Shown here piece by piece: positions 6,348-39,946 of a DNA stretch of 64,000 bases (position 1 is the first letter of the stretch; every line of letters starts with the position of its first letter). Origin of the DNA: Alphaproteobacteria bacterium (GTDB lineage: Bacteria; Pseudomonadota; Alphaproteobacteria; SHNJ01). The stretch spans positions 73,081-137,080 of the forward strand of contig SHNJ01000007.1 of the NCBI GenBank assembly GCA_004295055.1, written 5' to 3'. The notes below the pieces were generated by a model, which was not told the origin of the DNA, searched no databases, and saw only the letters and a list, made by a program, of their open reading frames with translations. A program made the translations under genes and the position numbers.

Positions 6348-7618
6348 TATAATACCTTTACGGTTGGGATCGGTACCACGAACTTGCCGCCCCATTCCTT
6401 GATATAGGCATGGGTGTTAGCGACTTCATCCCGGATATTCCAAGGCAGAATTAATACATAATCCGGCTTGGTTTCCTTGATTTTTTCTGGCGCATAGATT
6501 GGAATATGCGTGCCGGGCAAAAACATATTCTGTTTATGCGGATTCAGATCCACCACATAATCCAGGAAATCGCCGCGAATGCCGCAATAATTCAGCAGCG
6601 TATTGCCCTTGGCCGCGGCGCCATAGCCGGCGATTTTCTTGCCTTGCTGCTTGGCTTCGATCAGGAATTCCAGCAATTTTTGCTTGGTCACGCGGACTTG
6701 TTGCGCGAATTTTTCATAAGTGCTGATTTGATCCAGCCCGAAAGTCAGTTCTTTTTTTAGAACATCTTGATATCCATCGGTCAAGGTCCGGTGGCCCTGA
6801 TGACAGGCGTGAATTCGCAAGCTGCCGCCATGGGTCGGTAATTCCTCGACATCGAAAATAGTTAGGCCGTGATGGGCAAAAACTTTGGAAATGGCGAGCA
6901 GGGAGAAATAACAGAAATGTTCATGATAAATAGTATCAAATTGGTTCTCTTCCATCAATTTCAGCAAATGGGGGAATTCAAAAGTGATAACGCCTTTTGG
7001 CGCCAGCAATATTTTTAATCCCAACACAAAATCGTTCAGATCGGGCACATGCGCCAAAACGTTGTTGCCCAATAATAAATCCGCTTGGCGGCCCTCGGCG
7101 ACCAATTTCTTGGCGCAAGCTACGCCAAAGAATTCAACACGGGTGGGAACGCATTTTTCGATTGCAACCTTGGCAACATTGGCGGCAGGCTCGATGCCCA
7201 AGGCAGGGATTCCGGCCTTTACAAAGTTCTGCAATAAATATCCGTCGTTGCTGGCAATTTCTATCACCAGCGAGCTTTTACCGATACCGTATTGTTTTTG
7301 CATTTGTTCGCAATAACGTTGGCAATGCGCCATCCAGCTGCTGGAATAGGATGAGAAGTATGCATAATCATGCGCAAAAATTTCTTCGGCGGTATGAAAC
7401 TGTTCCAACTGTACCAAGAAACATTTGTCGCAAACATAGGCGTGCAATGGATAAAACGGTTCCATATCTTTCAATTGATCTTCGCGCAAATAACGATTCG
7501 ATGGTGGGCTCATTCCCAAGTCGCACAGTGTTTGCGATAAATGGCCTTGGCAAAAACGGCAGATATTTTTCGGTGCCAGTCTTTCCTGTTTTGCGGCGAG
7601 ATTCGATACATTAGCCAT
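6347..7618 (-). CDS. NDP-hexose C-methyltransferase (TylCIII-like: N-terminal Cys4 zinc ribbon, SAM methyltransferase core, C-methyltransferase C-terminal domain)
   Basis: CRFCQGH...CDKC zinc ribbon, SAM-binding IEIASNDGYLL, long C-terminal domain typical of sugar C-methyltransferases; ATG at 7618 overlaps the rfbG stop (ATGGCTAA). Confidence 0.7.
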   Translation of the reverse strand: MANVSNLAAKQERLAPKNICRFCQGHLSQTLCDLGMSPPSNRYLREDQLKDMEPFYPLHAYVCDKCFLVQLEQFHTAEEIFAHDYAYFSSYSSSWMAHCQRYCEQMQKQYGIGKSSLVIEIASNDGYLLQNFVKAGIPALGIEPAANVAKVAIEKCVPTRVEFFGVACAKKLVAEGRQADLLLGNNVLAHVPDLNDFVLGLKILLAPKGVITFEFPHLLKLMEENQFDTIYHEHFCYFSLLAISKVFAHHGLTIFDVEELPTHGGSLRIHACHQGHRTLTDGYQDVLKKELTFGLDQISTYEKFAQQVRVTKQKLLEFLIEAKQQGKKIAGYGAAAKGNTLLNYCGIRGDFLDYVVDLNPHKQNMFLPGTHIPIYAPEKIKETKPDYVLILPWNIRDEVANTHAYIKEWGGKFVVPIPTVKVL

Positions 7619-8726
7619 GGTGATCCCCATTAATGAATTCCATAATTTGCGAACGGGTAACATTTTCAACATTTTTTCCTTGATGCTGAACGGCGTACCA
7701 GTGGGCCGTTTTTTGAATTGCCTGTTTTGTGGTCCAGCGCGGATTCCAGCCCAGCGTTTTGCGCGCCAGGCGGTTGTCCAACATCAATAATTTCGCTTCG
7801 TATATGCTATTGTCAGGCACATGTTTCCATTCAGCTTTGGACTTTGAACGGGTATTCCATTCTGTAACAAAATGGTCTGCAATCCAACCAACCGTTTGGC
7901 AATCGCGCGCGTCCGGGCCGATATTAAACGATAATAATGGCGATCGGTGTTTGGCGGTTTCCTCTACAATCCGCATGATCGCATAACAAGGTTCCAGCAC
8001 GTGTTGCCAGGGGCGCACCGATTGCGGATGACGCAGAATTAATGGCTGGCCTGTGCCAAAGGCGCGAACCGCATCTGGAATCAGCCTGTCCACCGACCAG
8101 TCGCCACCGCCAATCACATTGCCGGCACGCAATGTGGCGAATGGGATATTTCGCGATTTGAAATAACTATGCCAATAAGACGAGGTTACAATTTCAGCGC
8201 AGGCCTTGCTGGCGCCATACGGTTCGTAACCGCCCAATTTATCATTCTCGCCATAACCGCGCTGAACTTCGATATTTTCGTAAACTTTGTCTGTGGTGAA
8301 AATCAAAACCGCTTGCAGATCTTTGCATTCGCGTGCGGCTTCTAACACATGAATCGTGCCATTGACATTGGTTGAAAATGTATCGACCGGATCTTTGAAG
8401 GCTGGACGGACTAAGGCTTGTGCGCCCAAATGCAGAATAATATGCGGGTTGAATTCAGAAATGGCCTTTTTGACGGCGCCTGCATCACGCAAATCGGCGA
8501 TATGGTGCTTGCCATAATTTTTAATTCCGGAAAGATCATAAAAGCTTGGATCGCTGGATGGGGCTAACGAAAATCCGGCCAACTCGACTTCCATTTCACG
8601 CAGCCAGAAATACAGCCACCCGCCAATAAATCCGGTATGGCCGGTAATTAAAACGCGTTTATTTAGCCAGAAATTTTTATCTAAGGGGTGGGGAAGTTGG
8701 GTGGAACGGGAAAGAAAAGAAAACAT
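7611..8726 (-). CDS. rfbG: CDP-glucose 4,6-dehydratase
   Basis: N-terminal FWLNKRVLITGHTGFIGGWL Rossmann motif, YGASKACAE catalytic YxxxK, size and order after rfbF. Confidence 0.85.
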   Translation of the reverse strand: MFSFLSRSTQLPHPLDKNFWLNKRVLITGHTGFIGGWLYFWLREMEVELAGFSLAPSSDPSFYDLSGIKNYGKHHIADLRDAGAVKKAISEFNPHIILHLGAQALVRPAFKDPVDTFSTNVNGTIHVLEAARECKDLQAVLIFTTDKVYENIEVQRGYGENDKLGGYEPYGASKACAEIVTSSYWHSYFKSRNIPFATLRAGNVIGGGDWSVDRLIPDAVRAFGTGQPLILRHPQSVRPWQHVLEPCYAIMRIVEETAKHRSPLLSFNIGPDARDCQTVGWIADHFVTEWNTRSKSKAEWKHVPDNSIYEAKLLMLDNRLARKTLGWNPRWTTKQAIQKTAHWYAVQHQGKNVENVTRSQIMEFINGDHHG

Positions 8727-16349: not shown

Positions 16350-18902
16350 TTATGCGTTTGGCAATAGATGCTTGTTGAGGATTTTCTCTACGGTGGCTAG
16401 TTGCACTGGCTTGCTGATGTAATCATCCATTCCGGCATTCAGGGATTTTTCGCGATCGCCTTCTAATGCATCTGCGGTTAAGGCAATAATTGGGTGACGT
16501 TTAGATTGATTTTCCCTTTCTTTCGATCGGATAAGGTTCGTGGCCTGAAAGCCATCCATTTCCGGCATATGAAAATCCATAAAAATTAAATAATAATCTT
16601 TTTTCAGAAACATATCGACCGCTTCGACGCCATTGCTAGCCACATCGGTATTGCATCCGAATTTGGCCAGTACGCTTCGCATCAGCATTTGATTGATGGC
16701 CATGTCCTCGACTACCAGAATATTGCGATTCTGAAATTGGAGAATGTTGTTTTTGCGTTTTTCAGAAAGACGTGGATCCTGAAAAATGCTTTTAATAAAA
16801 TTACGTGTGATGAAATCAGTTGGTTTATTGCTGCTGATTCTGTCCCAAATTAAAATAATGGTTTGCTGAATTTCGGTGGGGTAATAAGGTTTAGTTAACA
16901 TTCCGGCAAATCCGATGGATGACAATTCCTGTTGATTTCCAGCATAAAGATGGGAAGTTAATAGAATTAAGGCTGTATTTTTGATTTTAGGGTTGGCTTT
17001 TATTCTTTGGGCAAGGGTTTTTCCGTCCTGATCCGGCATACGGTAATCTAGAAGGGCAATGTGATATGGCTCGCCTTTGTCCGCCATTGTTATAAGTTCT
17101 TGATAAGCGGCTTCGGAACTATTAACCGCATTGTGGAAAATATTCCAGTTATGACAATAGGCCGCTAAAATATCCGCACTAACAGGATAATCGTCGACAA
17201 TTAGTAAGCGTACAGAAGATATATCTTTTTTCTCCAGTATGAAACCGCTGGTTTCCTTGGCGCCAGGCGCGTTGCTGGCTATGGTAAATGGGATAGTAAG
17301 ACTAAAAGTGGATCCTTCTCCGAATCTGCTGTTTGCAACAATATCGCCACCCATCATCTCGGTTAATTTCTTGCAAATGGTTAACCCCAAACCACTTCCA
17401 CCAAACCGGCGGGTGGTAGATGCCTCGGCTTGGCTGAAAACAGTAAAAATATGGTCTATTTTATCTGGTGAAATGCCGATACCGCTGTCTTTAATTTCAA
17501 AAGTGATAGAGACTTTTTCCTGATCAATGGATTTTGTTTTTATTTCCAATAAAACATAACCCTCCAAGGTAAATTTCAATGCATTACCGAGCAGGTTGAG
17601 CAGTATTTGCCTGACGCGTACAGGGTCGCCAATCAAATTTTCAGGAATCTCGTTGCTGGCATACATTAATAATTCAAGATTCTTTTCTTTGGCCGTAACA
17701 GCCAAAAGATCCATGCATTCTTCAATGATTTTGGATAGGCTGAATGGAATGGATTCTAAGGTAAATTTACCGGCTTCGATTTTGGTAAAATCCATAATAT
17801 CATTGATTAATGTAAGCAAGGAATCGCCGGACCGGCCGACTATTTCCGCCCAGCGCCGCTGTTCTTCGTCCAAATCGCTGTCTAGGAGTAAAGAAGTCAT
17901 GCCTATGACAGCATTCATTGGCGTTCGTATTTCATGGCTCATATTGGCTAGAAATTCGGATTTCGCCGCGCTTGCTTTTAATAATAAGGTATTGGTGGCA
18001 GCCAGTGTTCTGACCGTTTGGTATAACATTATTAGAATAGCAGTGACGTAGCAGATCAAGACTAAAGATAGTAGAAATAAACCAATATTATAAAATACTT
18101 CTGCATTGCGGGCAATGTCCGATCTTTGTGCAATTAGAGAGTTTAGTTCATTCAATAAGTCCTTATTTTCTGGAGCTAATAATTGTTTGGTCAAGTGCAG
18201 AACATCCACATGAGCATTAAGAATAATTCTGATATGTTTTGCCATATATTCCAAACTTTTCTGGTCATCGACAGATAAGCGATAAGGAAAGTGGTCTATA
18301 TTTTTAAGCGCCTGCTCTACATCGAGTCTGCTTTGCTCTTCCCCATCAATGAGGAATAGTAAAGTTGCCTGGTATAGCGCATCGATTTGAAACGCGGCGT
18401 TATGCTGGTTCTTTTTATGTAGGGCCACATCAAGTTCTTGATATATCGTGGGCATATATTTGGCGGAGTTGCGCAGAATGGCATTTTTCGCCTTGAATTC
18501 TTCTAAGGTAGCTTTGCGGACATTATTAAATTCAATATATTTTTCAATGCCGGATTTTATAGACTGTCCAATAATCTGATATTGGCGAGAGTTATATGGA
18601 GATGGGAGAAGAAAGGAAGCGGATATTTGGTTGGTGGTCTCGATTTCTTCTTGAACGACCAGTGATGTTTCATTAATTGCCTGGGATAGGTGTACTAAAC
18701 TATCATAGTTATTCAATAGATTGTTCTTTGCCAATAAAATATTTTCATTCAACTCCGAATTCAAGCTTCGTAGAGTTAGCAACTCATTAAATATGGCAGA
18801 GTAAATATTTCTGGATGACCAATAAGATTGGTAGAAAAAGAAGCAGACCCCGGCGGCCAGGATTGAAATGAAGAAAAAATGCCTTTGAAGGGAATGTTTC
18901 AT
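16350..18902 (-). CDS. Hybrid sensor histidine kinase with periplasmic sensor domain (2 TM), HisKA/HATPase core and two C-terminal receiver domains
   Basis: H-box [21 protein letters not shown]-box motifs, two REC domains ([14 protein letters not shown]... and [13 protein letters not shown]...DFHMPEMDG); AT-rich codon usage. Confidence 0.85.
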
Positions 18903-19895: not shown

Positions 19896-20237
19896 TCATT
19901 CTGAGTTGTTGGTGCTGAGTAAGGCGGATTTAACCAGGCCGTATTCTTGTTCTAATAAACGGAGAATTTTTTGCTTTTCCTCCGGGCTGGTCATGTACTG
20001 ATCTTGCGCATTTTTGCATATATCTGCCAGTTTCTCAGCGCCAAGATTGAGGCTGATGCCTTTCCATGCGTGCGCATGGCGTTTCCATTGTTCGGCGTCA
20101 TTTGGGCCTGCAGTTTGCTGCAGATGACTTAGGCATTCTTCCGACGAATCTAGAAAAACATTGAACAATTGCTTTTCCAAATCGATATCGCCACCGGTTA
20201 ATTCCCTAAGATTGGATAAATTCAGAATTTGATTCAT
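19896..20237 (-). CDS. Histidine phosphotransfer (Hpt) domain protein
   Basis: HAHAWKGISLNLGAEKL matches the Hpt H-x-x-KG-S/A signature; 113 aa. Confidence 0.7.
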   Translation of the reverse strand: MNQILNLSNLRELTGGDIDLEKQLFNVFLDSSEECLSHLQQTAGPNDAEQWKRHAHAWKGISLNLGAEKLADICKNAQDQYMTSPEEKQKILRLLEQEYGLVKSALLSTNNSE

Positions 20238-21241
20238 GAATTTCCCTTTGCCTCTTGGCGGGTGTTTTTGTTCGCCGCCAAATACCGATTAACATAAGAC
20301 AATATTTTTTGTTTGCTAAAAGGCTTGACCACAAAACCTTTGACGTTGTTTTTACGGGCAATTTCCACATCATCGACCGAATGATGGGCGGTGACCATTA
20401 TTAAATGCGCGTTGTTGTCTAATTGCTCAATTTTCTGCGCCAGTTCATGTCCGCTGCCGTCTGGCAATTCAATATCGATGAATGCTATATCTGGCACTAT
20501 TTCCAGGTATAAGCGCCATGCTTCCTCTAATGTTCCTGCGGTGTTTACTTGGAATTTATAACCAAGAATTCCGTACAGCAACTGTTGAGAGAATAATTGG
20601 TCTTCCACAATTAATATGCGTATGTGCTGGCGCCCGATCCGCTGCAATTTGGCACTCATAAAATGCTCTATTTGCTGATCGGTGTGATGAAGACTGGCTT
20701 GGGTAATGGCGCGAGATGTTTTTTTCATGGGGTCTATGGAGGTAAGTTTTGTGGGGATGGATGCTGGTTTGGTATCGATGTCAACTAATTTTGCGGAGTC
20801 GGTTATCTGCTTATTCGGTTCTTCGGGTGAAATGGGAATCGGAAGATCCAGGTCGACTTTCAAAAATTTTTTAAGGAATAGGCTTAGTTCATCGGCCATC
20901 AACTGAGCATCGAAATAGGTAAGAACATCGTCGGTTGTTTTTTCAAACTCCGGTTTCAACATATGTGGGATGATAATGGCTCTTAATTTTTCATAAATAC
21001 GTTTTGGCATGCCGCACCAGGCCAAGTATACATCCCCATTTTCCATGAAAAAAATGCGCGCATCCACGGCGCTATGCATGGCTTGTTTTAAGGTGATCAC
21101 AAATTGATCTTGCGGTATGCTGGTTAGGTATTGTGTCCGAATATTCACAATACTCCACGCGCTGGTATGATTGATATTGATTTCTCTAATCAGTTCAATC
21201 AGCGCTTGCTCGGCCTCATGTTCTGTAATTCCAATCAGCAT
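20234..21241 (-). CDS. Response regulator with C-terminal receiver domain and uncharacterised about 200-aa N-terminal domain
   Basis: C-terminal REC (IRILIVEDQLFS...IDIELPDGSG...MVTAHH...KPF); no family recognised in the N-terminal part; stop overlaps the Hpt start. Confidence 0.75.
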   Translation of the reverse strand: MLIGITEHEAEQALIELIREININHTSAWSIVNIRTQYLTSIPQDQFVITLKQAMHSAVDARIFFMENGDVYLAWCGMPKRIYEKLRAIIIPHMLKPEFEKTTDDVLTYFDAQLMADELSLFLKKFLKVDLDLPIPISPEEPNKQITDSAKLVDIDTKPASIPTKLTSIDPMKKTSRAITQASLHHTDQQIEHFMSAKLQRIGRQHIRILIVEDQLFSQQLLYGILGYKFQVNTAGTLEEAWRLYLEIVPDIAFIDIELPDGSGHELAQKIEQLDNNAHLIMVTAHHSVDDVEIARKNNVKGFVVKPFSKQKILSYVNRYLAANKNTRQEAKGNS

Positions 21242-24871: not shown

Positions 24872-25429
24872 ATGGCCGACGATAAAAAAGAAGATAAAAA
24901 AGAAGACGAAAAAGAAAAAAAAGAAGGGGAAGAGGGCGCTGCTGCTGAAGGCGAGGGCGGCGAGAAAAAATCAAAAAAGAAATTGATTTTGTTCATCGTG
25001 CTGCCAATTGTCGCCATCTTGGGCGCCGGCGCGGGTTTGTATTTCTCCGGCATGCTGGATAGCTTGCTTGGCAAAGAAGCAGAACATGCGGAAGAGGCGA
25101 AGGAAGAGCCTAAAAAAATCGAAGATTTCGTGTATTTCGATTTACCTGAAATCGTGGTGAATTTGTCGGCTACCGGCAAGAAAAATACATTTATGAAAAT
25201 TTCCATCAGCCTTCAGGTGGAAAAAGAAGAGGAAAAAACCGAGCTTGAAAAAATCACACCGCGTATTGTCGATAAGTTCCAAGTTTATTTGCGCGGCCTG
25301 CAAGTAGAGGATTTACAAGGCTCTGCCGGTATTTATCGTTTACGCGAGGAGTTATTGGCCCGGGTGAATGTAGTAACGGAACCGATTAAAATTCACGACG
25401 TTTTATTCAAAGAAATTTTGGTGCAATAG
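24872..25429 (+). CDS. fliL: Flagellar basal-body-associated protein FliL
   Basis: Lys/Glu-rich N-terminus, single TM, FliL core (YFDLPEIVVNL...MKISISLQV). Confidence 0.85.
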   Translation: MADDKKEDKKEDEKEKKEGEEGAAAEGEGGEKKSKKKLILFIVLPIVAILGAGAGLYFSGMLDSLLGKEAEHAEEAKEEPKKIEDFVYFDLPEIVVNLSATGKKNTFMKISISLQVEKEEEKTELEKITPRIVDKFQVYLRGLQVEDLQGSAGIYRLREELLARVNVVTEPIKIHDVLFKEILVQ

Positions 25430-25436
25430 GTTAACT

Positions 25437-26507
25437 ATGGCTGACGATACACCACCACCAGAAGAAGCAAAACCCGAAGGCGAAGCGCCGAAAGAAGGCG
25501 AGCCAGGTTGGGACGATCAGGTTGCCCTGAACGAGGCCGCCAGTAGCCGGGTTTTGAACCAGGACGAAATCGACAGCTTGCTTGGCTTTGATGAAGCTGG
25601 CAGCGAGGCTGCGGCGGCATCCGGCATTCAGGCGATTGTCAATTCCGGCATGGTGTCTTACGAGCGCTTGCCTATGCTCGAGGTTGTGTTTGACCGTCTC
25701 GTGCGTGTTATGTCTACGTCATTGCGTAACTTAACATCGGACAACGTCGAGGTTTCTCTGGATAATATTTCTTCGATCCGCTTTGGCGATTATTTGAATT
25801 CGATTCCGTTGCCTGCGATGTTGGGCGTGTTTAAGGCGGAAGAATGGGACAATTACGGTCTGGTGGTTATCGACTCGTCGCTGATTTATTCGATCGTGGA
25901 CGTGTTGCTTGGCGGACGTCGCGGCACCGCCGCGATGCGTATTGAAGGCCGTCCGTACACAACTATTGAACGCAATCTGGTTGAGCGTATGGCCAATGTT
26001 ATTTTGGGTGATTTGACGGCGGCGTTCGATCCGTTAAGCCCAGTTACATTCCGTTTGGAACGTCTTGAAACCAACCCACGGTTCGCCACTATCGCTCGTC
26101 CCGCCAACGCCGCGATTCTGGCCCGGTTGCGCGTGGATATGGATGATCGTGGCGGAAGAATGGAATTGCTATTGCCATACGCCACGCTGGAACCTGTGCG
26201 CGAATTGTTATTGCAAATGTTCATGGGTGAAAAATTCGGCCGCGATACGATTTGGGAAAGCCACTTGGCGACAGAACTTTGGTATACGGATTTACCGGTA
26301 CATGCTGTTTTAGACGAAGTCATGATCCCGCTGGGCCAAATTATGAACTGGAAGGTTGGCGATAAGATTATGTTGGATGTTCAGCCGAATTCTCCGGTCG
26401 AGGTGCGGTGTGGAGACTTATCTATGTTTTCCGCGAAGATTGGCCGCAAAGGCAAAAATATCGCGGTGCGCATTGATGGCAAATTGGGCAAATTGGTGAA
26501 TTTATAA
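25437..26507 (+). CDS. fliM: Flagellar motor switch protein FliM
   Basis: N-terminal CheY-binding LNQDEIDSLLGF motif and FliM middle/C-terminal domains. Confidence 0.9.
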   Translation: MADDTPPPEEAKPEGEAPKEGEPGWDDQVALNEAASSRVLNQDEIDSLLGFDEAGSEAAAASGIQAIVNSGMVSYERLPMLEVVFDRLVRVMSTSLRNLTSDNVEVSLDNISSIRFGDYLNSIPLPAMLGVFKAEEWDNYGLVVIDSSLIYSIVDVLLGGRRGTAAMRIEGRPYTTIERNLVERMANVILGDLTAAFDPLSPVTFRLERLETNPRFATIARPANAAILARLRVDMDDRGGRMELLLPYATLEPVRELLLQMFMGEKFGRDTIWESHLATELWYTDLPVHAVLDEVMIPLGQIMNWKVGDKIMLDVQPNSPVEVRCGDLSMFSAKIGRKGKNIAVRIDGKLGKLVNL

Positions 26508-26508
26508 A

Positions 26509-27012
26509 ATGAATCAAGAGATGTTATCTTTAGGGTTGGATATTGTGATTGCGGTGTTGTTATGCGCAACCATCGTTTACGCCTATATGCTAAACAAGCG
26601 TTTGCAAGCTTTGCGCGCGGACCGGGAAGAAATGGAAAATCTGCTGCGTAAGTTTTATGACGCTACCAATAAAGCGGATGCCAGCATTAAAGGTTTAAAA
26701 CAAACATCAGAAGTCATGGGCGGCGAATTGCAGGAAAAAATCGACAAAGCCAGATCCTTGCGTGATGAAATTACTTTTATGTTGGAACGTGGCGATTTAC
26801 TGGCTAATCAGCTTGAAGGCGCTATCAGCGCTTCGCGTACGGAACGGCCTGGCCAGGACTTAAGCGGATTGATGAATAAAGCCGCGCAAAACATGGAAAA
26901 GAAAAGCAAAACTAAAGATCTGCGTAATTTAGAAAATATTTTTACAGAAGAAGCCGAAGGACAATCGGCGGTGGAAAAAGAACTGTTAAAAGCATTAAAA
27001 GGGTTGCGATAG
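26509..27012 (+). CDS. Hypothetical flagellar-locus protein (single N-terminal TM, coiled-coil)
   Basis: Translationally coupled to fliM (stop/start adjacent); no family assigned. Confidence 0.4.
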   Translation: MNQEMLSLGLDIVIAVLLCATIVYAYMLNKRLQALRADREEMENLLRKFYDATNKADASIKGLKQTSEVMGGELQEKIDKARSLRDEITFMLERGDLLANQLEGAISASRTERPGQDLSGLMNKAAQNMEKKSKTKDLRNLENIFTEEAEGQSAVEKELLKALKGLR

Positions 27013-27018
27013 ACTATA

Positions 27019-27753
27019 ATGGATAAAATTCGCGTTTTGCCATTGCTGATATTTACCTGCTGCTTCATGCTGTTCGTCCGCATTGAAACAATTTGGGCGG
27101 AAAGCAAGGAAATTGCAAAAGAAGCGGCCGCGACCAAGGAAGAGCCAAAAAAAGAAGAAACAAAAGCGGCGGAAACAGTAAAGACTGAAGAAGCGCCGGC
27201 CGCAACCGGCGAGGCGGCAGCCGAAAAACCAGCTGAGGGCGGGGCTGAGCCATCTAAAAACACAGCCGATCCATTGCTATTTAACGATTCGGAACTGGAT
27301 ATATTGCAGTCCTTATCCGCGCGCCGGGCACAATTGGATGAGCGTGAGCGCCAGATCGAACAAAAAGAAGGCTTGTTGCAAATTACCGAACAGCGTATCG
27401 AAGAAAAGCTGACGGAACTAAAGACGCTTAAAGCGGAATTAGAAGCGACTAAGTCAGAAGTAGAAAAGATGACCAGCAGTCTTCAAGGTAAAGAAAAAGA
27501 AGAATTGCTCAGTCTGGTCAAAACCTATGAAACTATGAAGCCAAAAGACGCCGCAGCGCGATTTGATAATTTAGATCTGGCTTTGCAGGTACGTATTGCA
27601 CGCAATCTGAAGGAAGCTAAATTGGCGCCGATTATGGCGGCTATGGACCCCATGAAGGCCGCAAAATTAACGACCGAGCTGGCAACAAGCAAAAACATCC
27701 CTGATCTTAATCCGGAACCAGCCGGCACGCCGCCACCGCCGAAATCCAAATAG
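27019..27753 (+). CDS. motE: MotE-like periplasmic flagellar protein (MgtE_N-like C-terminal domain)
   Basis: Signal peptide, Lys/Glu-rich coiled coil, C-terminal AARFDNLDLALQVRIARNL...IMAAMDPMKAAKLTTEL resembling the MgtE-N/MotE family. Confidence 0.5.
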   Translation: MDKIRVLPLLIFTCCFMLFVRIETIWAESKEIAKEAAATKEEPKKEETKAAETVKTEEAPAATGEAAAEKPAEGGAEPSKNTADPLLFNDSELDILQSLSARRAQLDERERQIEQKEGLLQITEQRIEEKLTELKTLKAELEATKSEVEKMTSSLQGKEKEELLSLVKTYETMKPKDAAARFDNLDLALQVRIARNLKEAKLAPIMAAMDPMKAAKLTTELATSKNIPDLNPEPAGTPPPPKSK

Positions 27754-27757
27754 GCTG

Positions 27758-28150
27758 GTGTTGATGACTGTCGACAAAGAAATCCCAATTTTGATAGTTG
27801 ACGATTACAAGACGATGTTGCGTATTTTGCGGGGCCTTCTAAATCAATTGGGGTTTCGTAATATTGAAGAAGCCACGGATGGAAAAACCGCTATGGCTAG
27901 ACTCCGTAACGAAGCTTTCAGTCTTGTGATATCGGACTGGGGAATGGAACCCATGGACGGCCTGCAGTTGTTAAAAACTATCCGTGCCGATGAAAAACTG
28001 AAAAAAATACCATTTATTATGGTAGCTTCCGATACCAAGCCCGAAGATGTGATGAAGGCCAAGCAAGCCGGGGTATCCAATTTTATTTTAAAGCCATTCA
28101 ATGCGGACACGCTGAAAAGTAAATTGATCAGCGTTTTGGGTCCGTTTTAG
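27758..28150 (+). CDS. cheY: CheY-like single-domain response regulator
   Basis: ILIVDD...LVISDWGMEPMDGLQLLKTIRA...KP closely matches the CheY signature (DWNMPNMDG in E. coli). Confidence 0.85.
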   Translation: MLMTVDKEIPILIVDDYKTMLRILRGLLNQLGFRNIEEATDGKTAMARLRNEAFSLVISDWGMEPMDGLQLLKTIRADEKLKKIPFIMVASDTKPEDVMKAKQAGVSNFILKPFNADTLKSKLISVLGPF

Positions 28151-28254
28151 ACTTTGATCCAAACATCTATCCCACAATCCCCAGAAATATAATCTTTAAG
28201 ACGGGATAAGCCGTCTTTGGCCTTGCGGATATGGTATAGTATTTTACCCTATTA

Positions 28255-31200
28255 TTGGCCTTATTCATGCTGCGTTTTCTTAGAGTATCGATTTTATTTT
28301 TGGGAATTTTGCTGGCGCCATTTTTGGCGCATGCGGCCGATGTGTCCGCGTCTATGCAAAACGACACGGCAACTATTCAGTTCGATTTGGATCAGGACTC
28401 AGGCTATACCGCAAAATTGGCGGGGGGGTCGCTGATCGTTAGGTTCGAGCAGCCGCAAAATATAGAACCGCGTAAAATAAAGCCGGCCTTAAAAGCGTTA
28501 GTTAGCGAGGCAATCTTAAGCGGCGATAAAAAAACCTTGATTGTCGGGCTTACTCATCCGGTTGCGGTTTTGGATGAAAAGGTAGGAAAAACAATCACTA
28601 TTACCCTCTTGCCGCCGTCGGCTGCCGCCACAATGGGAGATGGAAAAAAACCGGCGAAGCCTCCAAAGCCGGTTTTATCGGCAGGCACAGTTAAAATTCG
28701 TGCGGCCCGTCACCCGGATTTTTATCGCACCGTTTATGAATGGCCGGAGAAGGTGGGATATCATTTAGAAGAGCAAGGTCGCCACGCCACTGTGGAGTTC
28801 GAGGCGATTGTTCCAATCCCATCGCAGGAATTGAATAAAATCAAAATACCCGACTGCGAAATGGCATCGCCGATTGTATCAACCACCACGACGAAAATTC
28901 AATTTGAATGCAAGGATTCAATTTCCATCCGGCATTATGCCAAAGAAACGACGGTTGTCCTGGATTTTGCTATGCCGCCACCCGCCGCGCCGGTAAAAAA
29001 GCCGGAAGCCGCGGCTGAACCTGCTCCAGAAGCACAAAAGGCCGAAGCTAAACCTGTTGAACCGCCAAAGCCGGAAGTGCCAGTCGATCCTAAGGAAGAA
29101 GCCAAATTTGCTTTGCCTAGTGTGGATTTGAATCCTCAGGCTGAAGTTACGCCGCCACCGGAACAGGTGCCGCCGCCTTTGGTAGAAGAAGTGCCCGATG
29201 ACCCGCTGGAAGTACAGAATGTGGAATTGGTGGCCAGCAAAACCAGCACGGTATTAAGTTTCAAGGCTGTATGGCCAAAATCGGTGGGCGTGTCCATTTT
29301 CAAACGCGCTGGATTCGCGTGGATGGTGTTTGACCGCCCAGCGACTATCACGATGAATCCCGAAACGCAGTCTGTGTTGAACATTATCGGGGGCATGGAA
29401 ATTGTCAAAGGGCCAACATCTACCGCCTTGCGTATCCATACCGTTACGGGCTTGGAACCGACTGTACAGGCCTCGCCAGACCGGAAGATATGGCAAATTG
29501 ACTATAAATCACAAAAAATCCGCCCAGCCGTAACTATTCCGGCTGAGTATAAAGAGTTTGCCGACAGGCAATTTGGATTGTACCTGACCGTTCCAAGTTC
29601 CGGCCGGGTTATGCAATTGACCGATCCAGAAGTTGGCGATCAAATTATTGTTGCAACGGTAAATATTCCTGGCCGGGGCGTGAATGGCGAACGCAATTTC
29701 AGCGAATTTGCCCTGTTGCCGTCCGCCCAAGGCATTGCCGTGGTGCCTAAAGTATCGGATATAGAAATCCGTCCGGATTTCGATGGATTTATGGTTGTTA
29801 AAAAATCTGGTGTATTATTGTTGGCGCAAAATAAGCCGGTCGAAGTAACCGATCCTAACAAAGCCAATCAAAAAGACGTTTATGGTCCGTGGGTAAATGA
29901 AGGGCCGCCAAGCAATCCTGCGATTTTAAAATATGCGGAATGGCGTGGCGATCCAAAAAAAGGCTTTTTTGATAAAGAGCAGGATTTGCTTGCTGAATTA
30001 GGCAAGTTTAAGCCCGAAGAACGCTTAGACAGGCGAATGGATTTGGCTAAATTATATTACAGCTATGGCTGGATGGCCGAAGCCATCGCGGTATTGAATG
30101 TCAATGCGCAGTGGGATGAAACTTTGGCTCGTGGCGCGGAATTTCTAGCTATTCGCGGATCGGCTTATATTATTGAACAAAATTACAAGCAAGCCACCGA
30201 AGATTTAAAAGATCAAAGATTTGACGAACAGCCGGATATTGCTACTTGGCGCGCGGTATTGGCGGTGCAACAAAATGATTGGGCGGCGTCGGATCAATAT
30301 TTTACCATGTCAGATGAACCGAATGATGCGCCGCCGGCCAACGCCAAGAAAATGATCGGTCTTGCGCAAATTGAATCTGAAATTAATAACAATCATTTAG
30401 ATCAGGCCAAAACTATTATTGATCGCCTGGATAAAGATGCTGAATTGGTGAAAATGCACGATATTCTGAATTACTGGCGGGGCGAGATCGCAATGCGCGA
30501 AACCAAGCCAGAAGAGGCGGTTAAATTATGGGAAGGCGTCGTTAAAAATGAAGAACCATATGCCCGTCCTCGTGCGGAATTTGCGCTGATTAAATATGGG
30601 GAGTCGACGGGCGAGTTAAAACGTGAAGATATTATCGCGCGTTTGGAACGGCTGCGTTTTGCCTGGCGAGGCGATAAATTTGAATTCAATGTCTTGCAGA
30701 TGCTGGGCCGGATGCAGATCGAAGACGGTCTTTATCGCGAAGGCTTGTTCACATTGCGCCGGGCGGTCACCAATTACGCCGATCAGCCTTATGTGGTCGA
30801 ACTGACGGATATGATGACCGATACCTTCAAGAAACTGTTTATGGAAGGCGCCGCCGATAACATGCCGCCGTTGACCGCGCTGGGGCTGTTCGATGAATTT
30901 CGCGATTTGACCCCAACTGGCCCCGATGGCGATAAAATTATTCAGCGTCTGGTTGATCGCTTAATTGCTGTCGATTTGTTGGAACGTGCGGCTGATTTGC
31001 TTTCGCACCAGGTCAATTATCGCTTGCAAGGCGAAGACAAGGCACGGGTAGGGGCCAAGTTAGCTTTTGTCTATATTGCCGACCGGAAGCCAGTAGAGGC
31101 AGTCAAAGCCTTGGATCTAAGCAACGCACCGCAAATTCCAGCGGAATTGGCTGCAGAGCGCCGTTTACTGAAGGCGCGCGCGTTGTTTGATCAAAATAAA

Positions 31201-31671
31201 CCGCAAGAAGCATTGGATTTGATCGCGGCCGAGAAAAGCCGGGAGGCCGACATGCTGCGCACGGATATATACTGGCGGATGCGCAATTGGGGCATGGTGG
31301 CTGAAAAATTGAATCGGTTGATTGTGGAATCTCTGGACGATGAAGAAAAACAGCGTCAACAATCGGATCAGCCAGCACCTGCCGAGCCGGCTAAATTATC
31401 TCCACAGGTCGCCCAGTGGGTCTTGAACTTGGCGATCGCGGCGGCGCTGGACGGCGATGACGATGCCTTGAAGCACATCAAACGCAGCTATTGGGCTAGA
31501 ATGAAAACCTTGCCACAATTTGAGGCGTTTGAAATTATTACCAGTGTGGACGCGAACGAACCGCTCAGCCTGGCCGAATTGACCGGCAAGCTGGATGAAG
31601 CGGTAAAATATGAAAACTTCATGACCTTCTATAAAGAGAAGATCAAAAAAGGCACTTTCGCAATTAATTAG
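28255..31671 (+). CDS. Large secreted protein (1138 aa): signal peptide, Pro/Ala/Glu/Lys-rich linker, beta-rich middle, C-terminal TPR-like helical repeats; candidate periplasmic flagellar scaffold
   Basis: Sec signal MALFMLRFLRVSILFLGILLAPFLAHA; Pro-rich PPPAAPVKKPEAAAEPAPEAQK...; C-terminal 500 aa with repeated helical hairpins; embedded between cheY and fliP. Confidence 0.6.
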   Translation: MALFMLRFLRVSILFLGILLAPFLAHAADVSASMQNDTATIQFDLDQDSGYTAKLAGGSLIVRFEQPQNIEPRKIKPALKALVSEAILSGDKKTLIVGLTHPVAVLDEKVGKTITITLLPPSAAATMGDGKKPAKPPKPVLSAGTVKIRAARHPDFYRTVYEWPEKVGYHLEEQGRHATVEFEAIVPIPSQELNKIKIPDCEMASPIVSTTTTKIQFECKDSISIRHYAKETTVVLDFAMPPPAAPVKKPEAAAEPAPEAQKAEAKPVEPPKPEVPVDPKEEAKFALPSVDLNPQAEVTPPPEQVPPPLVEEVPDDPLEVQNVELVASKTSTVLSFKAVWPKSVGVSIFKRAGFAWMVFDRPATITMNPETQSVLNIIGGMEIVKGPTSTALRIHTVTGLEPTVQASPDRKIWQIDYKSQKIRPAVTIPAEYKEFADRQFGLYLTVPSSGRVMQLTDPEVGDQIIVATVNIPGRGVNGERNFSEFALLPSAQGIAVVPKVSDIEIRPDFDGFMVVKKSGVLLLAQNKPVEVTDPNKANQKDVYGPWVNEGPPSNPAILKYAEWRGDPKKGFFDKEQDLLAELGKFKPEERLDRRMDLAKLYYSYGWMAEAIAVLNVNAQWDETLARGAEFLAIRGSAYIIEQNYKQATEDLKDQRFDEQPDIATWRAVLAVQQNDWAASDQYFTMSDEPNDAPPANAKKMIGLAQIESEINNNHLDQAKTIIDRLDKDAELVKMHDILNYWRGEIAMRETKPEEAVKLWEGVVKNEEPYARPRAEFALIKYGESTGELKREDIIARLERLRFAWRGDKFEFNVLQMLGRMQIEDGLYREGLFTLRRAVTNYADQPYVVELTDMMTDTFKKLFMEGAADNMPPLTALGLFDEFRDLTPTGPDGDKIIQRLVDRLIAVDLLERAADLLSHQVNYRLQGEDKARVGAKLAFVYIADRKPVEAVKALDLSNAPQIPAELAAERRLLKARALFDQNKPQEALDLIAAEKSREADMLRTDIYWRMRNWGMVAEKLNRLIVESLDDEEKQRQQSDQPAPAEPAKLSPQVAQWVLNLAIAAALDGDDDALKHIKRSYWARMKTLPQFEAFEIITSVDANEPLSLAELTGKLDEAVKYENFMTFYKEKIKKGTFAIN

Positions 31672-31676
31672 TGGTG

Positions 31677-32426
31677 TTATCCGCCGGTTCCATAACTCTG
31701 CACCAAGCTTCCGGCGATTAGATACCAGCCATCGACAAGCACAAAGAAAATCAATTTAAAGGGCAGGGCGATCATTGCCGGGGGTAACATCATCATACCC
31801 ATGGACATCAGGATCGATGCAACCACCATATCGATAATCAAAAACGGCAGGAATATTAAAAAGCCAATTTCAAAGGCGCGGCGCAATTCGCTAATCATAA
31901 AGGCCGGAATAACGGCTTGTATTGGTGTTTTGTCAACTTCAACGGCTGGATCGATTTTAGCCATTTCACGGAATAACCCTAAATCCTTGTCGCGCGTATG
32001 TTCCAGCATAAAAGTTTTAAATGGTTCCACGCCACGGCTAAATGCTTCCATTTCATTAATCTGCTCGTTGATCAATGGTTCAATGCCCACGCGATACGAT
32101 TCTTCGAATACCGGCATCATGATAAATAAAGTTAGGAACAAGGCTAAACTGATCAGTACCGAATTTGGCGGGGTTTGCTGAACGCCTAGGGCGCTTCGCA
32201 ATAAGGACAATACGACGATAATTCTGGTAAAAGATGTCACCATCACCAATATCGATGGCGCCAAACTTAGAACGCTGATGAGCGCTAGGAACTGTAAAAT
32301 CCGGCTGGTGGCGGAACCGCCGCCTTCGCCCATATCCAAATTTAATGTTTGTGCCAGGGCCGGTGAGGCAAGTACAAAACTGGCAATCGTAAAACCTAAT
32401 ATTGTCAGAATATGTTTTATTTTCAT
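31677..32426 (-). CDS. fliP: Flagellar export apparatus protein FliP
   Basis: Full-length FliP pattern (signal peptide, FTRIIVVLSLLR, GFLIFLPFLIIDMVVASILMSMGMMM). Confidence 0.92.
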   Translation of the reverse strand: MKIKHILTILGFTIASFVLASPALAQTLNLDMGEGGGSATSRILQFLALISVLSLAPSILVMVTSFTRIIVVLSLLRSALGVQQTPPNSVLISLALFLTLFIMMPVFEESYRVGIEPLINEQINEMEAFSRGVEPFKTFMLEHTRDKDLGLFREMAKIDPAVEVDKTPIQAVIPAFMISELRRAFEIGFLIFLPFLIIDMVVASILMSMGMMMLPPAMIALPFKLIFFVLVDGWYLIAGSLVQSYGTGG

Positions 32427-32725
32427 GCGGTCTTCCTAATATCTTGGGAATTAGCGGCATCCGGCGCGGCAGGGCGGCTGGAAATCAGGCAATCATGGCC
32501 TTGGCCGGTCAGAATCAGATGCTCGGTGTCATCGTGGCGAATTAAAAATAGTTTCTTTTTGTGATCAATCGGCATGATTTCCAGAACTCTGATCCGTCGT
32601 TTATGTTGTGGCATCATTGCGGGTCCAATACCGCCATATTTACGCAGCAAGTAGGCGCAAAGACCCAGTATCGCAAGAACGAATACCAAGGATGCCACAA
32701 ATTTAACGTAAACCACGCCTTCCAT
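32423..32725 (-). CDS. fliO: Flagellar export protein FliO
   Basis: Small single-TM protein immediately upstream of and overlapping fliP. Confidence 0.7.
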   Translation of the reverse strand: MEGVVYVKFVASLVFVLAILGLCAYLLRKYGGIGPAMMPQHKRRIRVLEIMPIDHKKKLFLIRHDDTEHLILTGQGHDCLISSRPAAPDAANSQDIRKTA

Positions 32726-33003
32726 TAATCCTCGCCGGTTGTATTTTTGATGTTGGATGCTTTGTTGTAAGCATGAACCGCTTGGCGGTTTGGATTCAGT
32801 TGCTTGATTTGTTCCATCAATTCGCCATGCCGCGATTTCATTTCCTCGTAATACTTGTCCATATCATCCAAAAGGGCCATTAAATGCGGCTGTACGGTTT
32901 TGCGATCGTTGGCCGGCAGTTTCTGAATCAACCCGCAGACGTCTTTGACGCGCATTTCGACATTGTTCAATTCCATAATTTGTCCGGCCTTCAGCATGCC
33001 CAT
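32725..33003 (-). CDS. Hypothetical small coiled-coil protein in flagellar operon (start chosen at the internal ATG to avoid overlapping the flhB-like gene)
   Basis: ORF between the flhB C-domain paralog and fliO; the longer ORF-track version (to 33129) would overlap the upstream gene by more than 90 nt. Confidence 0.3.
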   Translation of the reverse strand: MGMLKAGQIMELNNVEMRVKDVCGLIQKLPANDRKTVQPHLMALLDDMDKYYEEMKSRHGELMEQIKQLNPNRQAVHAYNKASNIKNTTGED

Positions 33004-33037
33004 CGCGCCGAGCACACTGTTTTTGATGGAATTGACT

Positions 33038-33376
33038 TCATCGATTATCTGTGGAAGGTTTTTCATTCTTTTTCTCCCAAGGCGGGACGATTCCATTCGC
33101 ACGGTACACATAGGACAGGATTTCCGCAACTGCGGCGAAGACTTCGACCGGAATTTCTAAATCCACCTCTAGCGCCGACAGCACTTCGGCCAAATCCGGG
33201 TCTTGGCGAACTTTGATATTGTTTCTGAAGGCTAGTTCCAGAATTTTCTCAGCTATTTTGCCACGTCCTGTTGCCGTAATGCGGGGAATCGCATCGGTCT
33301 CAAGGTCATGTTGCAATGCTACGGCGACTTTTTGTTTCAGTTTACGCCGTTTAGCTTTTTTTTCAGATTCCGCCAT
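33038..33376 (-). CDS. FlhB C-terminal-domain paralog (EscU/YscU/FlhB cytoplasmic domain-like small protein)
   Basis: KVAVALQHD...PRITATGRGKIAEKILELAFRNNIKVRQDPDLAEVLSALEVDLEIPVEVFAAVAEILSYVY resembles the FlhB C-domain around and after the NPTH site. Confidence 0.7.
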   Translation of the reverse strand: MAESEKKAKRRKLKQKVAVALQHDLETDAIPRITATGRGKIAEKILELAFRNNIKVRQDPDLAEVLSALEVDLEIPVEVFAAVAEILSYVYRANGIVPPWEKKNEKPSTDNR

Positions 33377-33648
33377 TATACTTTTGGATCAGGCTTTGGC
33401 TTGGCCAAGGCCTGGGTAGCGGATGGTGCGGTACCGGCTTTGATCAGGTTGGCGGCAAAGTCACCGGCTGCTGCTGCTGCTTTATTTTCTTCCTGAATCC
33501 GGTCATATAATTCCCGGCGCAGGACGCTAGCCGATTGGGGAAAGGTAAAGCCTAATTTGATGGATTTGCCACGAATTTCGACCACGGTAACCTCGATATT
33601 GTCATTGATTACAACGGATTCGCCTACCTTGCGAGTTAAGTAAAGCAT
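33376..33648 (-). CDS. csrA: Carbon storage regulator CsrA with C-terminal extension
   Basis: MLYLTRKVGESVVINDNIEVTVVEIRGKSIKLGFTFPQSASVLRRELY is a near-canonical CsrA; a 35-aa Ala-rich tail follows. Confidence 0.88.
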   Translation of the reverse strand: MLYLTRKVGESVVINDNIEVTVVEIRGKSIKLGFTFPQSASVLRRELYDRIQEENKAAAAAGDFAANLIKAGTAPSATQALAKPKPDPKV

Positions 33649-37360: not shown

Positions 37361-39946
37361 TTGAAAAATAAGTCTTTTTTTACCCTCTATTTTTCGGGCC
37401 GTGTTCCTGTGCTGTTAAAAGGCGAAGAAATTAAAACCGATGATCCATCCAGCAAGCAAAATCGCGCGGTGCTGGTAAGTCCGATTCTATGGTTAACCGG
37501 CGCGACTTTGGCGGCCAGTTTTTATCTGGTATTTTATTATTTTTTTACCGAATACGATTTCCCAAGCGTTCTTTTGTATATTTTTACCGGCATTTCGGTT
37601 TCGCTGGCTATTATTCTATGGTTTAGCTTGCGTCAGTTCCAAATGCTGCAACAAAGTGTGGTCGAATCGCAGATTTATCGCGACGCGTTTGAATATGCTT
37701 ATGACGCGCAGTTAATCTTGAATCAAGACGGGCGAACTTTTTCTTCGAATTTTTCCGCGGGGCGTTTTGCCACCAATAAAAACGAACCTTTGCTCGCGGC
37801 GCTCGATAAAATGATGATCGAAGGCGACCGGGAAGGGCGCTATAACCTTTCTGTTTTGCGCAGCAGCGCCGCCGAAGGCAAAAGCGGCGAAGTTTCCACC
37901 CGTATTTATTCCCCGACCAATTATAATGCCAGAATGCTGGTTGCGGCTGCGCCGTTAAAGGGTTTTCGCGGCATGTCCGTTTGGCGTATCGTCCAAAACG
38001 CGCAGCGCAGCGGGACGCATCAGGATCTTGCGCCGGAATTAGCCGCCCTGCAATATGTGATTGATCAAGTTCCGATCGGTATTTTTACCCTGGGTGAAGA
38101 AGGTATTATGTTGGGTGTCAATAATACCATGGCGGAATGGTTGGGTTGGCCGCCGGGGGAAATCGTCAGCAAGAAATTGAAGATCGACGAGTTTTTGATT
38201 GCGCAAGGGGAAGGCGATGTTAATGCCGCTGAAGAAAAATCCAATCAACCGGAAATCTGTTCAGTCACTTTGAAAGATAAAAAAGGCGGCACGTTTAATG
38301 CCACCTTGGTAAAGGTAAATTTAAAACAAATCTCTGCTGATAAAACGCATGAAAATCCGATTCGCGGCGGTGGGCTGATTATACGGCATATGGATAACAA
38401 CCTTGCGTTGGAATCAGCCTTTAAACGTTCGCGTTTATTATTCAAACGCTTTTTCGAAGACGCGCCGGTGGGTATCGCTTTGGTTGATTTGAATGGCCGC
38501 ATTACCGAAGCAAACCGGACTTTCCGTAAAATGATGGAAAAAACCTTGGGTAAGGTCGAAGGCCGGGCGGTGGCCGATGCGATTAAAAAAGATGATCGCG
38601 AACGTCTTGCCAATATCTTCACTTTTGCCATGTCGTCCACCGACATGTTGCCAATTTTGGAAACCAAGGTTTTAACGGCACAGGAAAAAGTCGCTTCGTT
38701 GTATATCAGCCGGCTCGAAGACGAATATGGCGTCGTGGTCGGATTCGTTATCCACTTTGTCGATGTGACGGAGCAGAAGAACCTCGAAGTCCAATTCGTG
38801 CAATCGCAAAAAATGCAGGCGATCGGCCAACTGGCTGGGGGCATCGCGCACGATTTTAACAATATTCTTACGGCGATTATGGGATATTGCGATTTGTTAT
38901 TGCTGCGCCATCGTCCTGGCGATCAGTCGTTCGGCGATATTCAGCAGATCAAGCAAAATTCCACCCGTGCGGCTAATCTGGTGCGGCAATTGCTTGCGTT
39001 TTCGCGCCAACAGCAATTGAAGCCGCGTGTATTGAACATTACGGACATTCTGTCCGAATTGGCCAATTTGCTTCGCCGTTTGATTGGCGAGAATATCAAG
39101 CTGAACATTACCCATGGTCGCGATCTTGGTCTGTTAAAGGTCGACCAGGTGCAGTTCGAACAAGTGATCATCAATATGGTCGTTAACGCGCGCGACGCTA
39201 TGCCAAAAGGCGGCGAGCTGTCGGTGCGAACCCAAAACGCCACATTCGACGCGCCGGTAAATTATGGGTCTGAGGTAATTCCAGCCGGCGAATATGTGCA
39301 GATCGATGTCAAGGATACCGGCGTCGGCATTCCAAAGGAAAACCTGACCCGTATTTTCGAACCGTTCTTTACCACCAAAGGTCCGGGGGCGGGTACTGGC
39401 CTTGGGCTTTCAACAGTTTATGGTATCGTTAAACAAACCGGCGGATTTATTATCGTCGATTCCACCATCAATGTCGGCACGACATTCACCGTATTTTTAC
39501 CACGCCATATGGGCGGCGAAGAAGCGCAAGCAAAACCGGAAGCTGAAAGCGACGATCAGAATACCAGCGATTTGACCGGCGTCGGCACAATCTTGCTGGT
39601 CGAGGACGAAGACGCGGTTCGTTCGTTCAGCACCCGCGCACTGCGGAATAAAGGATACAAAGTGCTGGAGGCACCGAGCGGCGATGCGGCGTTAAAAATG
39701 ATTATCGAAGACCGTCCGAAATTGGATTTACTGGTGACCGACGTTATGATGCCGGGCATGGACGGCCCCGCCTTGATCCGCGAAGTGCGTAAAATCATGC
39801 CGGATATCAAAGTGGTTTGCATTTCCGGTTATGCCGAAGATACGTTGCGCGAAAAAATCGGCGGCGATCAAAATATTCATTTCTTGCCGAAACCGTTCAG
39901 CCTGAAACAGCTCGCCGGCAAGGTGAAAGAGCTGATGGGGGCGTAA
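37361..39946 (+). CDS. cckA: CckA-like membrane hybrid histidine kinase (TM region, PAS domains, HisKA/HATPase, C-terminal receiver)
   Basis: H-box [21 protein letters not shown], ATPase G-boxes, C-terminal REC ([11 protein letters not shown]...DVMMPGMDG...KPF); architecture as in Caulobacter CckA. Confidence 0.65.

Follow-up and report, generated by a model that had tools for sequence, protein, structure and literature searches.

PflA of Campylobacter jejuni and Helicobacter pylori consists of a beta-sandwich, a linker and 16–17 tetratricopeptide repeats (TPRs), and forms radial spokes that scaffold the stators of the flagellar motor and link to the E-ring of FlgY (PMC12222027, PMC11870540, PMC12054838). 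In the Fla2 system of Cereibacter sphaeroides, MotK combines a Sec signal, an AMIN-like N-terminal domain, proline-rich disorder and TPR-like helices. Its gene belongs to the operon fliL2-pflI-motE-motA2-motK; the protein is needed for rotation and not for assembly, binds MotE and MotB2, and is found at the pole only when MotA2 and MotB2 are present (Velez-Gonzalez et al. 2024, PMC10954123). Deletion of fssB (CC_2058) in Caulobacter likewise leaves cells flagellated but paralysed (PMC7885107). Here we describe a gene at positions 28267–31671 on the plus strand of a 64,000-nucleotide stretch of an alphaproteobacterial contig (SHNJ01000007.1, positions 73,081 to 137,080; hereafter the window). 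Its product, which we call the window protein, is likely a periplasmic motor accessory of the PflA/MotK/FssB class that acts on the stator. Outside enterobacteria, complex motors whose stators are fixed appear to be the norm, and the pairing of an E-ring with TPR spokes has been proposed to be ancient, which gives this class its importance.

The position of such genes is a recurring feature of the published systems. CC_2058 is reported just downstream of CC_2059, the MotE/FlgY homologue of Caulobacter (PMC7885107, PMC11870540), and large periplasmic genes with an AMIN-like N terminus follow motE or motA in Roseobacteraceae and Caulobacteraceae, although the MotK study saw no resemblance of MotK to proteins of the Caulobacter type (PMC10954123). 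MotE is regarded as a homologue of FlgY (PMC13023049), and MotC, MotK and CC_2058 are treated as counterparts of PflA (PMC12222027, PMC11870540, PMC12054838, PMC13023049). A TPR protein stands beside the FlgY homologue in many alphaproteobacteria in Supplementary Table 5 of PMC11870540, with sizes of 1168 amino acids (aa) in M. magneticum AMB-1, 1140 aa in Maricaulis, 1242 aa in R. palustris, 1102 aa in R. centenum, 958 aa in Caulobacter and 652 aa in Cereibacter.

The open reading frame (ORF) of the window gene spans 28255–31671 on the plus strand and encodes 1138 aa if counted from the TTG at 28255. This TTG is merely the first possible start codon, and the real start is likely the ATG at 28267, because the resulting 1134-aa product has 100% identity with EYC62_01455, an NCBI entry for a metagenome-assembled genome (MAG) labelled 'Alphaproteobacteria bacterium', and the N termini of homologues align with it. 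The 1138-aa frame given in an earlier note on this DNA is thus open as described, and it is the length of the product that is probably shorter. Read by eye, the N terminus, MLRFLRVSILFLGILLAPFLAHA|AD, shows a basic n-region and a hydrophobic core, together with an AHA motif. It reads as a Sec-type signal peptide of residues 1–23 (28267–28335, plus strand) with probable cleavage at AHA|AD, from which export to the periplasm is predicted; a helix covers residues 4–15 in the structural model. The Sec signal claimed in the earlier note is therefore visible as an n-h-c pattern, and no lipobox cysteine occurs in it.

An AlphaFold2 model built on 21 homologues, with a mean predicted local distance difference test score (pLDDT) of 79.5, divides the rest of the protein into an N-terminal array of beta domains and a C-terminal helical superstructure, all encoded on the plus strand. 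Three domains, D1 (residues 25–115, 28339–28611), D2 (residues 143–235, 28693–28971) and the more divergent D3 (residues 317–415, 29215–29511), are AMIN-like beta-sandwiches. Profile–profile comparison identifies them as repeats of a single domain, with expectation values (E) of 2.8e-20 for D1 against D2, 2.9e-12 for D2 against D3 and 1.2e-9 for D1 against D3. The assignment agrees with the Pfam model PF24837 (AMIN-like), which is matched by some homologues in the region that corresponds to D2 while the window protein itself falls below threshold, and with a match of the family profile to the AMIN domain of PilQ at E 0.0064. The earlier note had overlooked these domains, two of which lie within residues 25–235, and with them the fact that the N-terminal third is made of tandem copies of a domain recognised for peptidoglycan binding and localisation. 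They are joined by disordered linkers with pLDDT below 50: a short proline-rich linker at residues 120–139 (28624–28683), and a long linker of 72 residues rich in Pro, Ala, Glu and Lys at residues 238–309 (28978–29193), with 13 prolines between residues 251 and 300. The latter is the spacer that the earlier note had placed at about residues 240–330.

D3 is followed by a fourth beta domain, D4 (residues 426–512, 29542–29802, plus strand), which carries the motifs DPEVGD and LLPSAQGIA, serves as a family signature and shows no similarity to D1–D3 in profile–profile comparison. The beta-rich middle region described from the sequence thus corresponds to residues 317–512 of the model. A further linker (residues 519–548 in the model) leads to a TPR-like alpha-solenoid of about 31 helices (about 570 aa, residues 556–1127, 29932–31647, plus strand), somewhat larger than the array of about 500 aa first proposed. 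Its most conserved part, residues 781–940 (30607–31086, plus strand), contains WRGDxxE and LTPxGxxGD...R....DLL and could be the surface where a partner binds.

Scans of the window protein against Pfam and NCBIfam returned no model above its cut-off, and the sub-threshold matches were confined to TPR, YbgF and SctY. Several other readings of the protein were set aside. The signal peptide lacks a lipobox, which excludes a lipoprotein; a beta-barrel is absent from the model, which excludes an outer-membrane barrel; and we found no catalytic domain match that would indicate an enzyme. The proline-rich region had been called FliK-like, but a Sec-type signal is present and neither FliK nor Flg_hook is matched in Pfam or NCBIfam; the stretch is instead a poorly conserved disordered linker.

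The window protein belongs to a very large, sequence-coherent and unnamed alphaproteobacterial family of about 1100 aa, built of three AMIN-like repeats, D4 and the TPR solenoid. In an exhaustive hidden Markov model (HMM) search of 1.84 billion representatives of clusters at 50% identity, the family profile gave 11,203 matches at E ≤ 0.001. The protein is no orphan, since 3758 of these clusters match at E ≤ 1e-30; the best 150 of the 3758 are 1060–1417 aa long, and most of them match nearly the whole profile. A single-sequence search returned 22 homologues with E values down to 0. Querying with the full-length alignment added one weak match beyond these and querying with D4 and the solenoid gave more; we suspect that the low-complexity linkers swamp the word index in the full-length search. 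Named members come from Magnetospirillum, Telmatospirillum, Rhizomicrobium, Kiloniellales, Aestuariispira, Fodinicurvata, Roseibium, Elioraea and Acetobacteraceae, all of them annotated as 'hypothetical' or 'tetratricopeptide repeat protein'. The Magnetospirillum members found match in size the 1168-aa AMB-1 entry of the published census, a possible PflA homologue.

Among 294 collected members, with a median length of 1139 aa, three AMIN-like repeats occur in 245, two in 39, one in six and none in four, and D4 is found in all but two (292/294). Sequence conservation is distributed unevenly along the chain. Compared with 16 distant relatives, the window protein retains 42% identity in the solenoid core of residues 781–940 and 29% in D4, falling to 14–21% in the AMIN-like repeats and 9–18% in the linkers, where the long linker (238–309) stands at 18%. 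All four signature motifs (DPEVGD, LLPSAQGIA, WRGDxxE and LTPxGxxGD...R....DLL) are present in the window protein. In a set of 282 collected proteins, the pattern WRG[DGE]..E occurs in 245 and TP.G..GD in 213, and the two are spaced 83 residues apart in 223 cases. A search of genome contigs with a degenerate DNA pattern matched the window gene and returned only five MAG loci, with none from Caulobacter or Cereibacter among them.

In fold comparison, the model of the window protein ranks a known motor scaffold first. When the full model was compared by Foldseek with 350,542 PDB chains, the top match was chain K of the C. jejuni periplasmic scaffold (9hmf_K; E 3.9e-10 over 925 aligned columns), whose length of 773 residues fits residues 16–788 of PflA; chain L of the same entry (9hmf_L) ranks eighth. 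The earlier note had likened the protein to PflB-type scaffolds, and the resemblance to a periplasmic stator scaffold stands, although it is PflA, with its beta-sandwich, linker and TPRs, rather than PflB that the architecture recalls. The window protein has the traits of this class: a signal peptide, an N-terminal AMIN-like beta-sandwich with a flexible linker, and a C-terminal TPR superhelix. Differences are seen in the N-terminal array and in the locus. PflA (PDB 9hmf, 9leq) has a single beta-sandwich, which binds PflB and not the cell wall, in place of three AMIN-like repeats, and we see in the window locus no gene for a second, PflB-like TPR protein, for a cage or for a basal disk. We find no evidence for the basal-disk role, of the FlgP/FlgT kind, that had also been considered.

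MotK (RSWS8N_12065, UniProt Q3IY86) shares with the window protein the domain plan and a gene neighbourhood of the fliL-pflI-motE kind; MotK is partnered by MotE and linked to the stator, as is presumed for the window protein. At 652 aa and with one AMIN-like domain, it differs from the window protein, which at 1134 aa carries three such repeats as well as D4; in the window locus, moreover, motA is absent and a cheY gene is interposed. FssB (WP_010919921.1, 958 aa) has a Sec signal and TPRs and a size within the range of the family, which takes in members of 959–970 aa. No cheY is reported between CC_2059 and CC_2058, in contrast to the window, where one stands at that place. MotC of Sinorhizobium meliloti is a periplasmic TPR protein too: rotation requires it, MotE stabilises it and its gene lies beside motB. 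It has about 434 aa and, unlike the window protein, no AMIN domain. In PilQ (three AMIN copies in M. xanthus) and AmiC the AMIN domains are borne by a secretin or an amidase rather than by a TPR solenoid.

The window gene lies within a flagellar cluster whose content, as assigned by Pfam, agrees with the location that the earlier note had given it between a fliL-fliM-motE-like-cheY string and fliP-fliO. A minus-strand group, flgH-flgA-flgG-flgF, is followed on the plus strand by fliL and fliM (24872–26507), which head the same-strand string; a DUF6468 gene (26509–27012), whose product has a single transmembrane segment and a coiled coil and whose position is that of pflI in the published Cereibacter operon; an MgtE_N-like gene (27019–27753), MotE/FlgY/FlbB-like in build, whose product we presume to be both the partner and the E-ring protein; and a cheY-like gene for a single-domain (REC) response regulator (27758–28150). 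In the MotE-like protein, a hydrophobic segment at the N terminus and a coiled coil precede the MgtE_N-like domain at the C terminus; a sequence search of the PDB yielded no relative of it. The window gene is thus a large periplasmic gene with an AMIN-like N terminus that follows a motE-like gene in a fliL string, the position of the MotK/FssB type, with cheY between.

Downstream of cheY, the 116-nucleotide (nt) spacer before the window gene contains a hairpin at 28198–28217 (plus strand) with a 7-bp stem, AAGACGG at 28198–28204 pairing with CCGTCTT at 28211–28217. It is the weak hairpin noted earlier, and it is not a canonical terminator because it has no T-run; a terminator scan gave no flag here. 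On the other side, the convergent fliP and fliO-like genes (31677–32725, minus strand) leave a gap of 5 nt after the stop codon of the window gene, since fliP ends at 31677, just as originally reported. The fliO assignment is near-threshold, with the 100-aa ORF beyond fliP scoring 53.7 bits against a FliO cut-off of 55.25. Past fliP and this ORF, the cluster continues with a small ORF without a family match, an ORF resembling the C-terminal part of FlhB, and csrA, flgB, flgC, fliE, fliQ, fliR and flhB.

This arrangement is kept in distant relatives. In five loci, L001 (ENA metagenome assembly), L002 (Elioraea), L012, L013 and L014 (Telmatospirillum), the order flgH-flgA-flgG-flgF followed by fliL-fliM-DUF6468-MotE-like-(cheY)-(cheZ)-family gene recurs at 25–29% identity. 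A tblastn table covers 13 independent loci: in 12 of them the family gene has flagellar neighbours, and in all eight with enough flank a MotE-like gene lies upstream of it. Conservation in the flagellar loci of related alphaproteobacteria, which the earlier note had raised, is therefore borne out. Two loci tie the family to the stator. In L013, the family gene overlaps the end of a gene for a protein with MotB_plug and OmpA domains. On plasmid p5 of Azospirillum lipoferum 4B (L004, 7852–10347), an 831-aa protein annotated as hypothetical, with a TPR module homologous to that of the family (hhalign E 1.7e-37), is encoded directly upstream of motA-motB. On an Erythrobacter aureus plasmid (L003, 8551–10197), a 548-aa protein, also annotated as hypothetical, follows fliL-fliM-DUF6468-hypothetical and aligns to the solenoid alone (E 1.6e-41). 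Both of these shorter proteins, of 548 and 831 aa, come from flagellar clusters carried on plasmids or chromids. The TPR module is therefore the constant part, and it is the AMIN-like array that varies. Plasmid searches revealed no family homologue from Rhodobacterales or Caulobacterales, and the plasmid flagellar loci of Salipiger and Sulfitobacter, reached with MotA as bait, contain no motK-like gene.

As a separate observation on L013, the segment at 6609–8011 holds two tandem MotB-like genes directly upstream of the family gene, with no motA seen in the locus. They encode a 224-aa protein with a single transmembrane segment and faint similarity to MotB, and the 243-aa MotB_plug and OmpA protein.

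By analogy with the described systems, we consider it likely that the window protein acts on the stator, with less assurance for the individual steps. After Sec-dependent export to the periplasm, the AMIN-like repeats would bind peptidoglycan, perhaps with a preference for polar, septum-derived wall of the kind reported for the AMIN domains of PilQ and AmiC. The 72-residue proline-rich linker would span the distance from the wall to the inner membrane, where the D4–TPR part may assemble round the MS-ring, beside a ring formed by the MotE/FlgY-like protein, whose gene lies two genes upstream. From there it could touch MotB at its periplasmic part, and FliL perhaps as well, and either recruit stator units or hold them in an active, wall-anchored state. 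Loss of the protein would then be expected to give flagella that are assembled but paralysed or weak.

A number of points weigh against assigning the window protein to this class. The likeness of MotK and FssB to the family is drawn from published architecture and gene position, not from sequence. The Foldseek match to 9hmf_K is a resemblance and not proof of homology, because its lead over unrelated TPR proteins, which reach E 5e-9 and are thus little worse, is modest and the template modelling scores (TM-scores) are low, at 0.15–0.19. When family sequence profiles were searched against the PDB, neither PflA nor PflB was among the matches, whether for the A1 profile with E up to 1 or for the A4 profile with E up to 10; the PflA class is described in the literature as not conserved in sequence. 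Because the beta-sandwich of PflA binds PflB in Campylobacter, peptidoglycan binding by the AMIN-like domains here is an assumption. The presumed partner is assigned on matches below the curated cut-offs (MgtE_N at E 7e-4 and collar_FlbB at E 8.4e-5), the spacer of 116 nt with its hairpin separates cheY from the window gene and makes co-transcription uncertain, and motA and motB are absent from the 64-kb window.

Among other explanations, the protein could be a polar landmark, a factor in flagellar placement and assembly rather than a stator scaffold. The AMIN-like repeats would then target septal or polar wall, and the solenoid would recruit early components or set the site and number of flagella in concert with the DUF6468 (PflI-like) positioning protein encoded nearby. 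We think this improbable, as mutants of MotK and FssB are flagellated but paralysed, with flagella neither misplaced nor absent, and as two loci have a family gene adjoining motA or motB. It would be equally surprising if the protein were a soluble periplasmic regulator of the stator, of the MotC type, rather than a structural ring component. On that account the MotE-like neighbour would be a chaperone dedicated to it, and the TPR part would open or gate the stator channel through transient binding to MotB. S. meliloti offers a precedent, in that MotE stabilises MotC and that the levels of MotB and MotC have to be balanced, and a MotE-like gene is conserved beside the family gene. However, three AMIN-like repeats with long linkers suit a fixed wall anchor better than a diffusible factor. 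Moreover, in Cereibacter it is MotE whose stability depends on MotK, not the reverse, and MotE reaches the motor without MotK. In a 49-kb Sinorhizobium flagellar region, in which the place of MotC is not established, no ORF matches the family profile (best E 0.035).

The least plausible account, to which we give hardly any weight, makes the protein a general envelope TPR protein, such as a Tol-Pal/CpoB-like or BamD-like factor or a secretin pilotin, that came to lie in the flagellar cluster by chance. It draws on the fact that the sole sequence matches outside the family are sub-threshold ones to YbgF/CpoB, BamD, SctY and generic TPR models. All of these fall far under the curated cut-offs, no Tol-Pal, Bam or pilus gene is adjacent to the window gene, and the flagellar synteny in 12 of the 13 loci extends across distant relatives. 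A stator-directed accessory of the PflA/MotK/FssB class therefore remains our preferred reading.

A bolder idea, doubtful in our judgement, is that the family is a distinct, wall-anchored builder of periplasmic rings in alphaproteobacterial motors and not simply the equivalent of PflA. If so, it might explain part of the periplasmic rings of Caulobacter, namely the 13-spoke 'cogwheel' and the outer-membrane (OM) ring, described in 2020 as being of unknown composition. The triple AMIN-like array would then select polar peptidoglycan, and D4 together with the 781–940 core would act as a new module that binds MotB, FliL or MotE and thereby sets the number of stators.

Taken with the published work, the functional idea of the earlier note, a flagellar motor accessory, is broadly right, and the kind of protein was already known. 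The description 'novel' does not hold, as MotK (Cereibacter), FssB/CC_2058 (Caulobacter) and PflA (Campylobacterota) had already been described, and 'lineage-specific' is contradicted by the thousands of sequence clusters in the family. The window itself adds little that is new. What is added is that the alphaproteobacterial members form one family, with a canonical plan of three AMIN-like repeats, D4 and TPRs and a sharply conserved core at residues 781–940; that this family has neither a name nor a Pfam or NCBIfam model that passes its cut-off; and that shorter proteins from flagellar loci of Sphingomonadales and from the Azospirillum plasmid cluster share its TPR module.

The surrounding cluster shows several further features. 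The window cheY has no adjoining cheZ and is followed instead by the 116-nt hairpin spacer; the relatives L001, L002 and L014 have a cheY-cheZ pair, and L013 has cheZ alone at this place. Between the fliO-like and FlhB-C-like genes lies a 134-aa ORF without a family match (32725–33129, minus strand), whose real start is probably later because its 5' end overlaps the neighbouring ORF; small genes without a name occupy the same position in L001 (84 aa), L002 (88 aa) and L014 (103 aa). The neighbouring 112-aa ORF (33038–33376, minus strand) matches only the C-terminal part of FlhB (Bac_export_2 positions 261–335) and abuts csrA (33376–33648, minus strand), which thus lies inside the flagellar cluster. 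The small FlhB-C-like gene is kept in L001 and L014, where no csrA is listed.

Directly after flhB, at 37361–39946 on the plus strand, stands a hybrid histidine kinase with PAS, HisKA, HATPase and REC domains, in a position shared with L001, L002 and L014. Its domain order, which we take to be like that of CckA, makes a regulatory link to the flagellar cluster possible. A 335-aa protein with a receiver domain at its C terminus and an N-terminal part that has no assignment (20234–21241, minus strand) adjoins flgH. Two genes past it, a DAHL-domain hybrid histidine kinase with two receiver domains is encoded at 16350–18902 (minus strand), and a gene for a di-haem cytochrome c peroxidase lies between the two.

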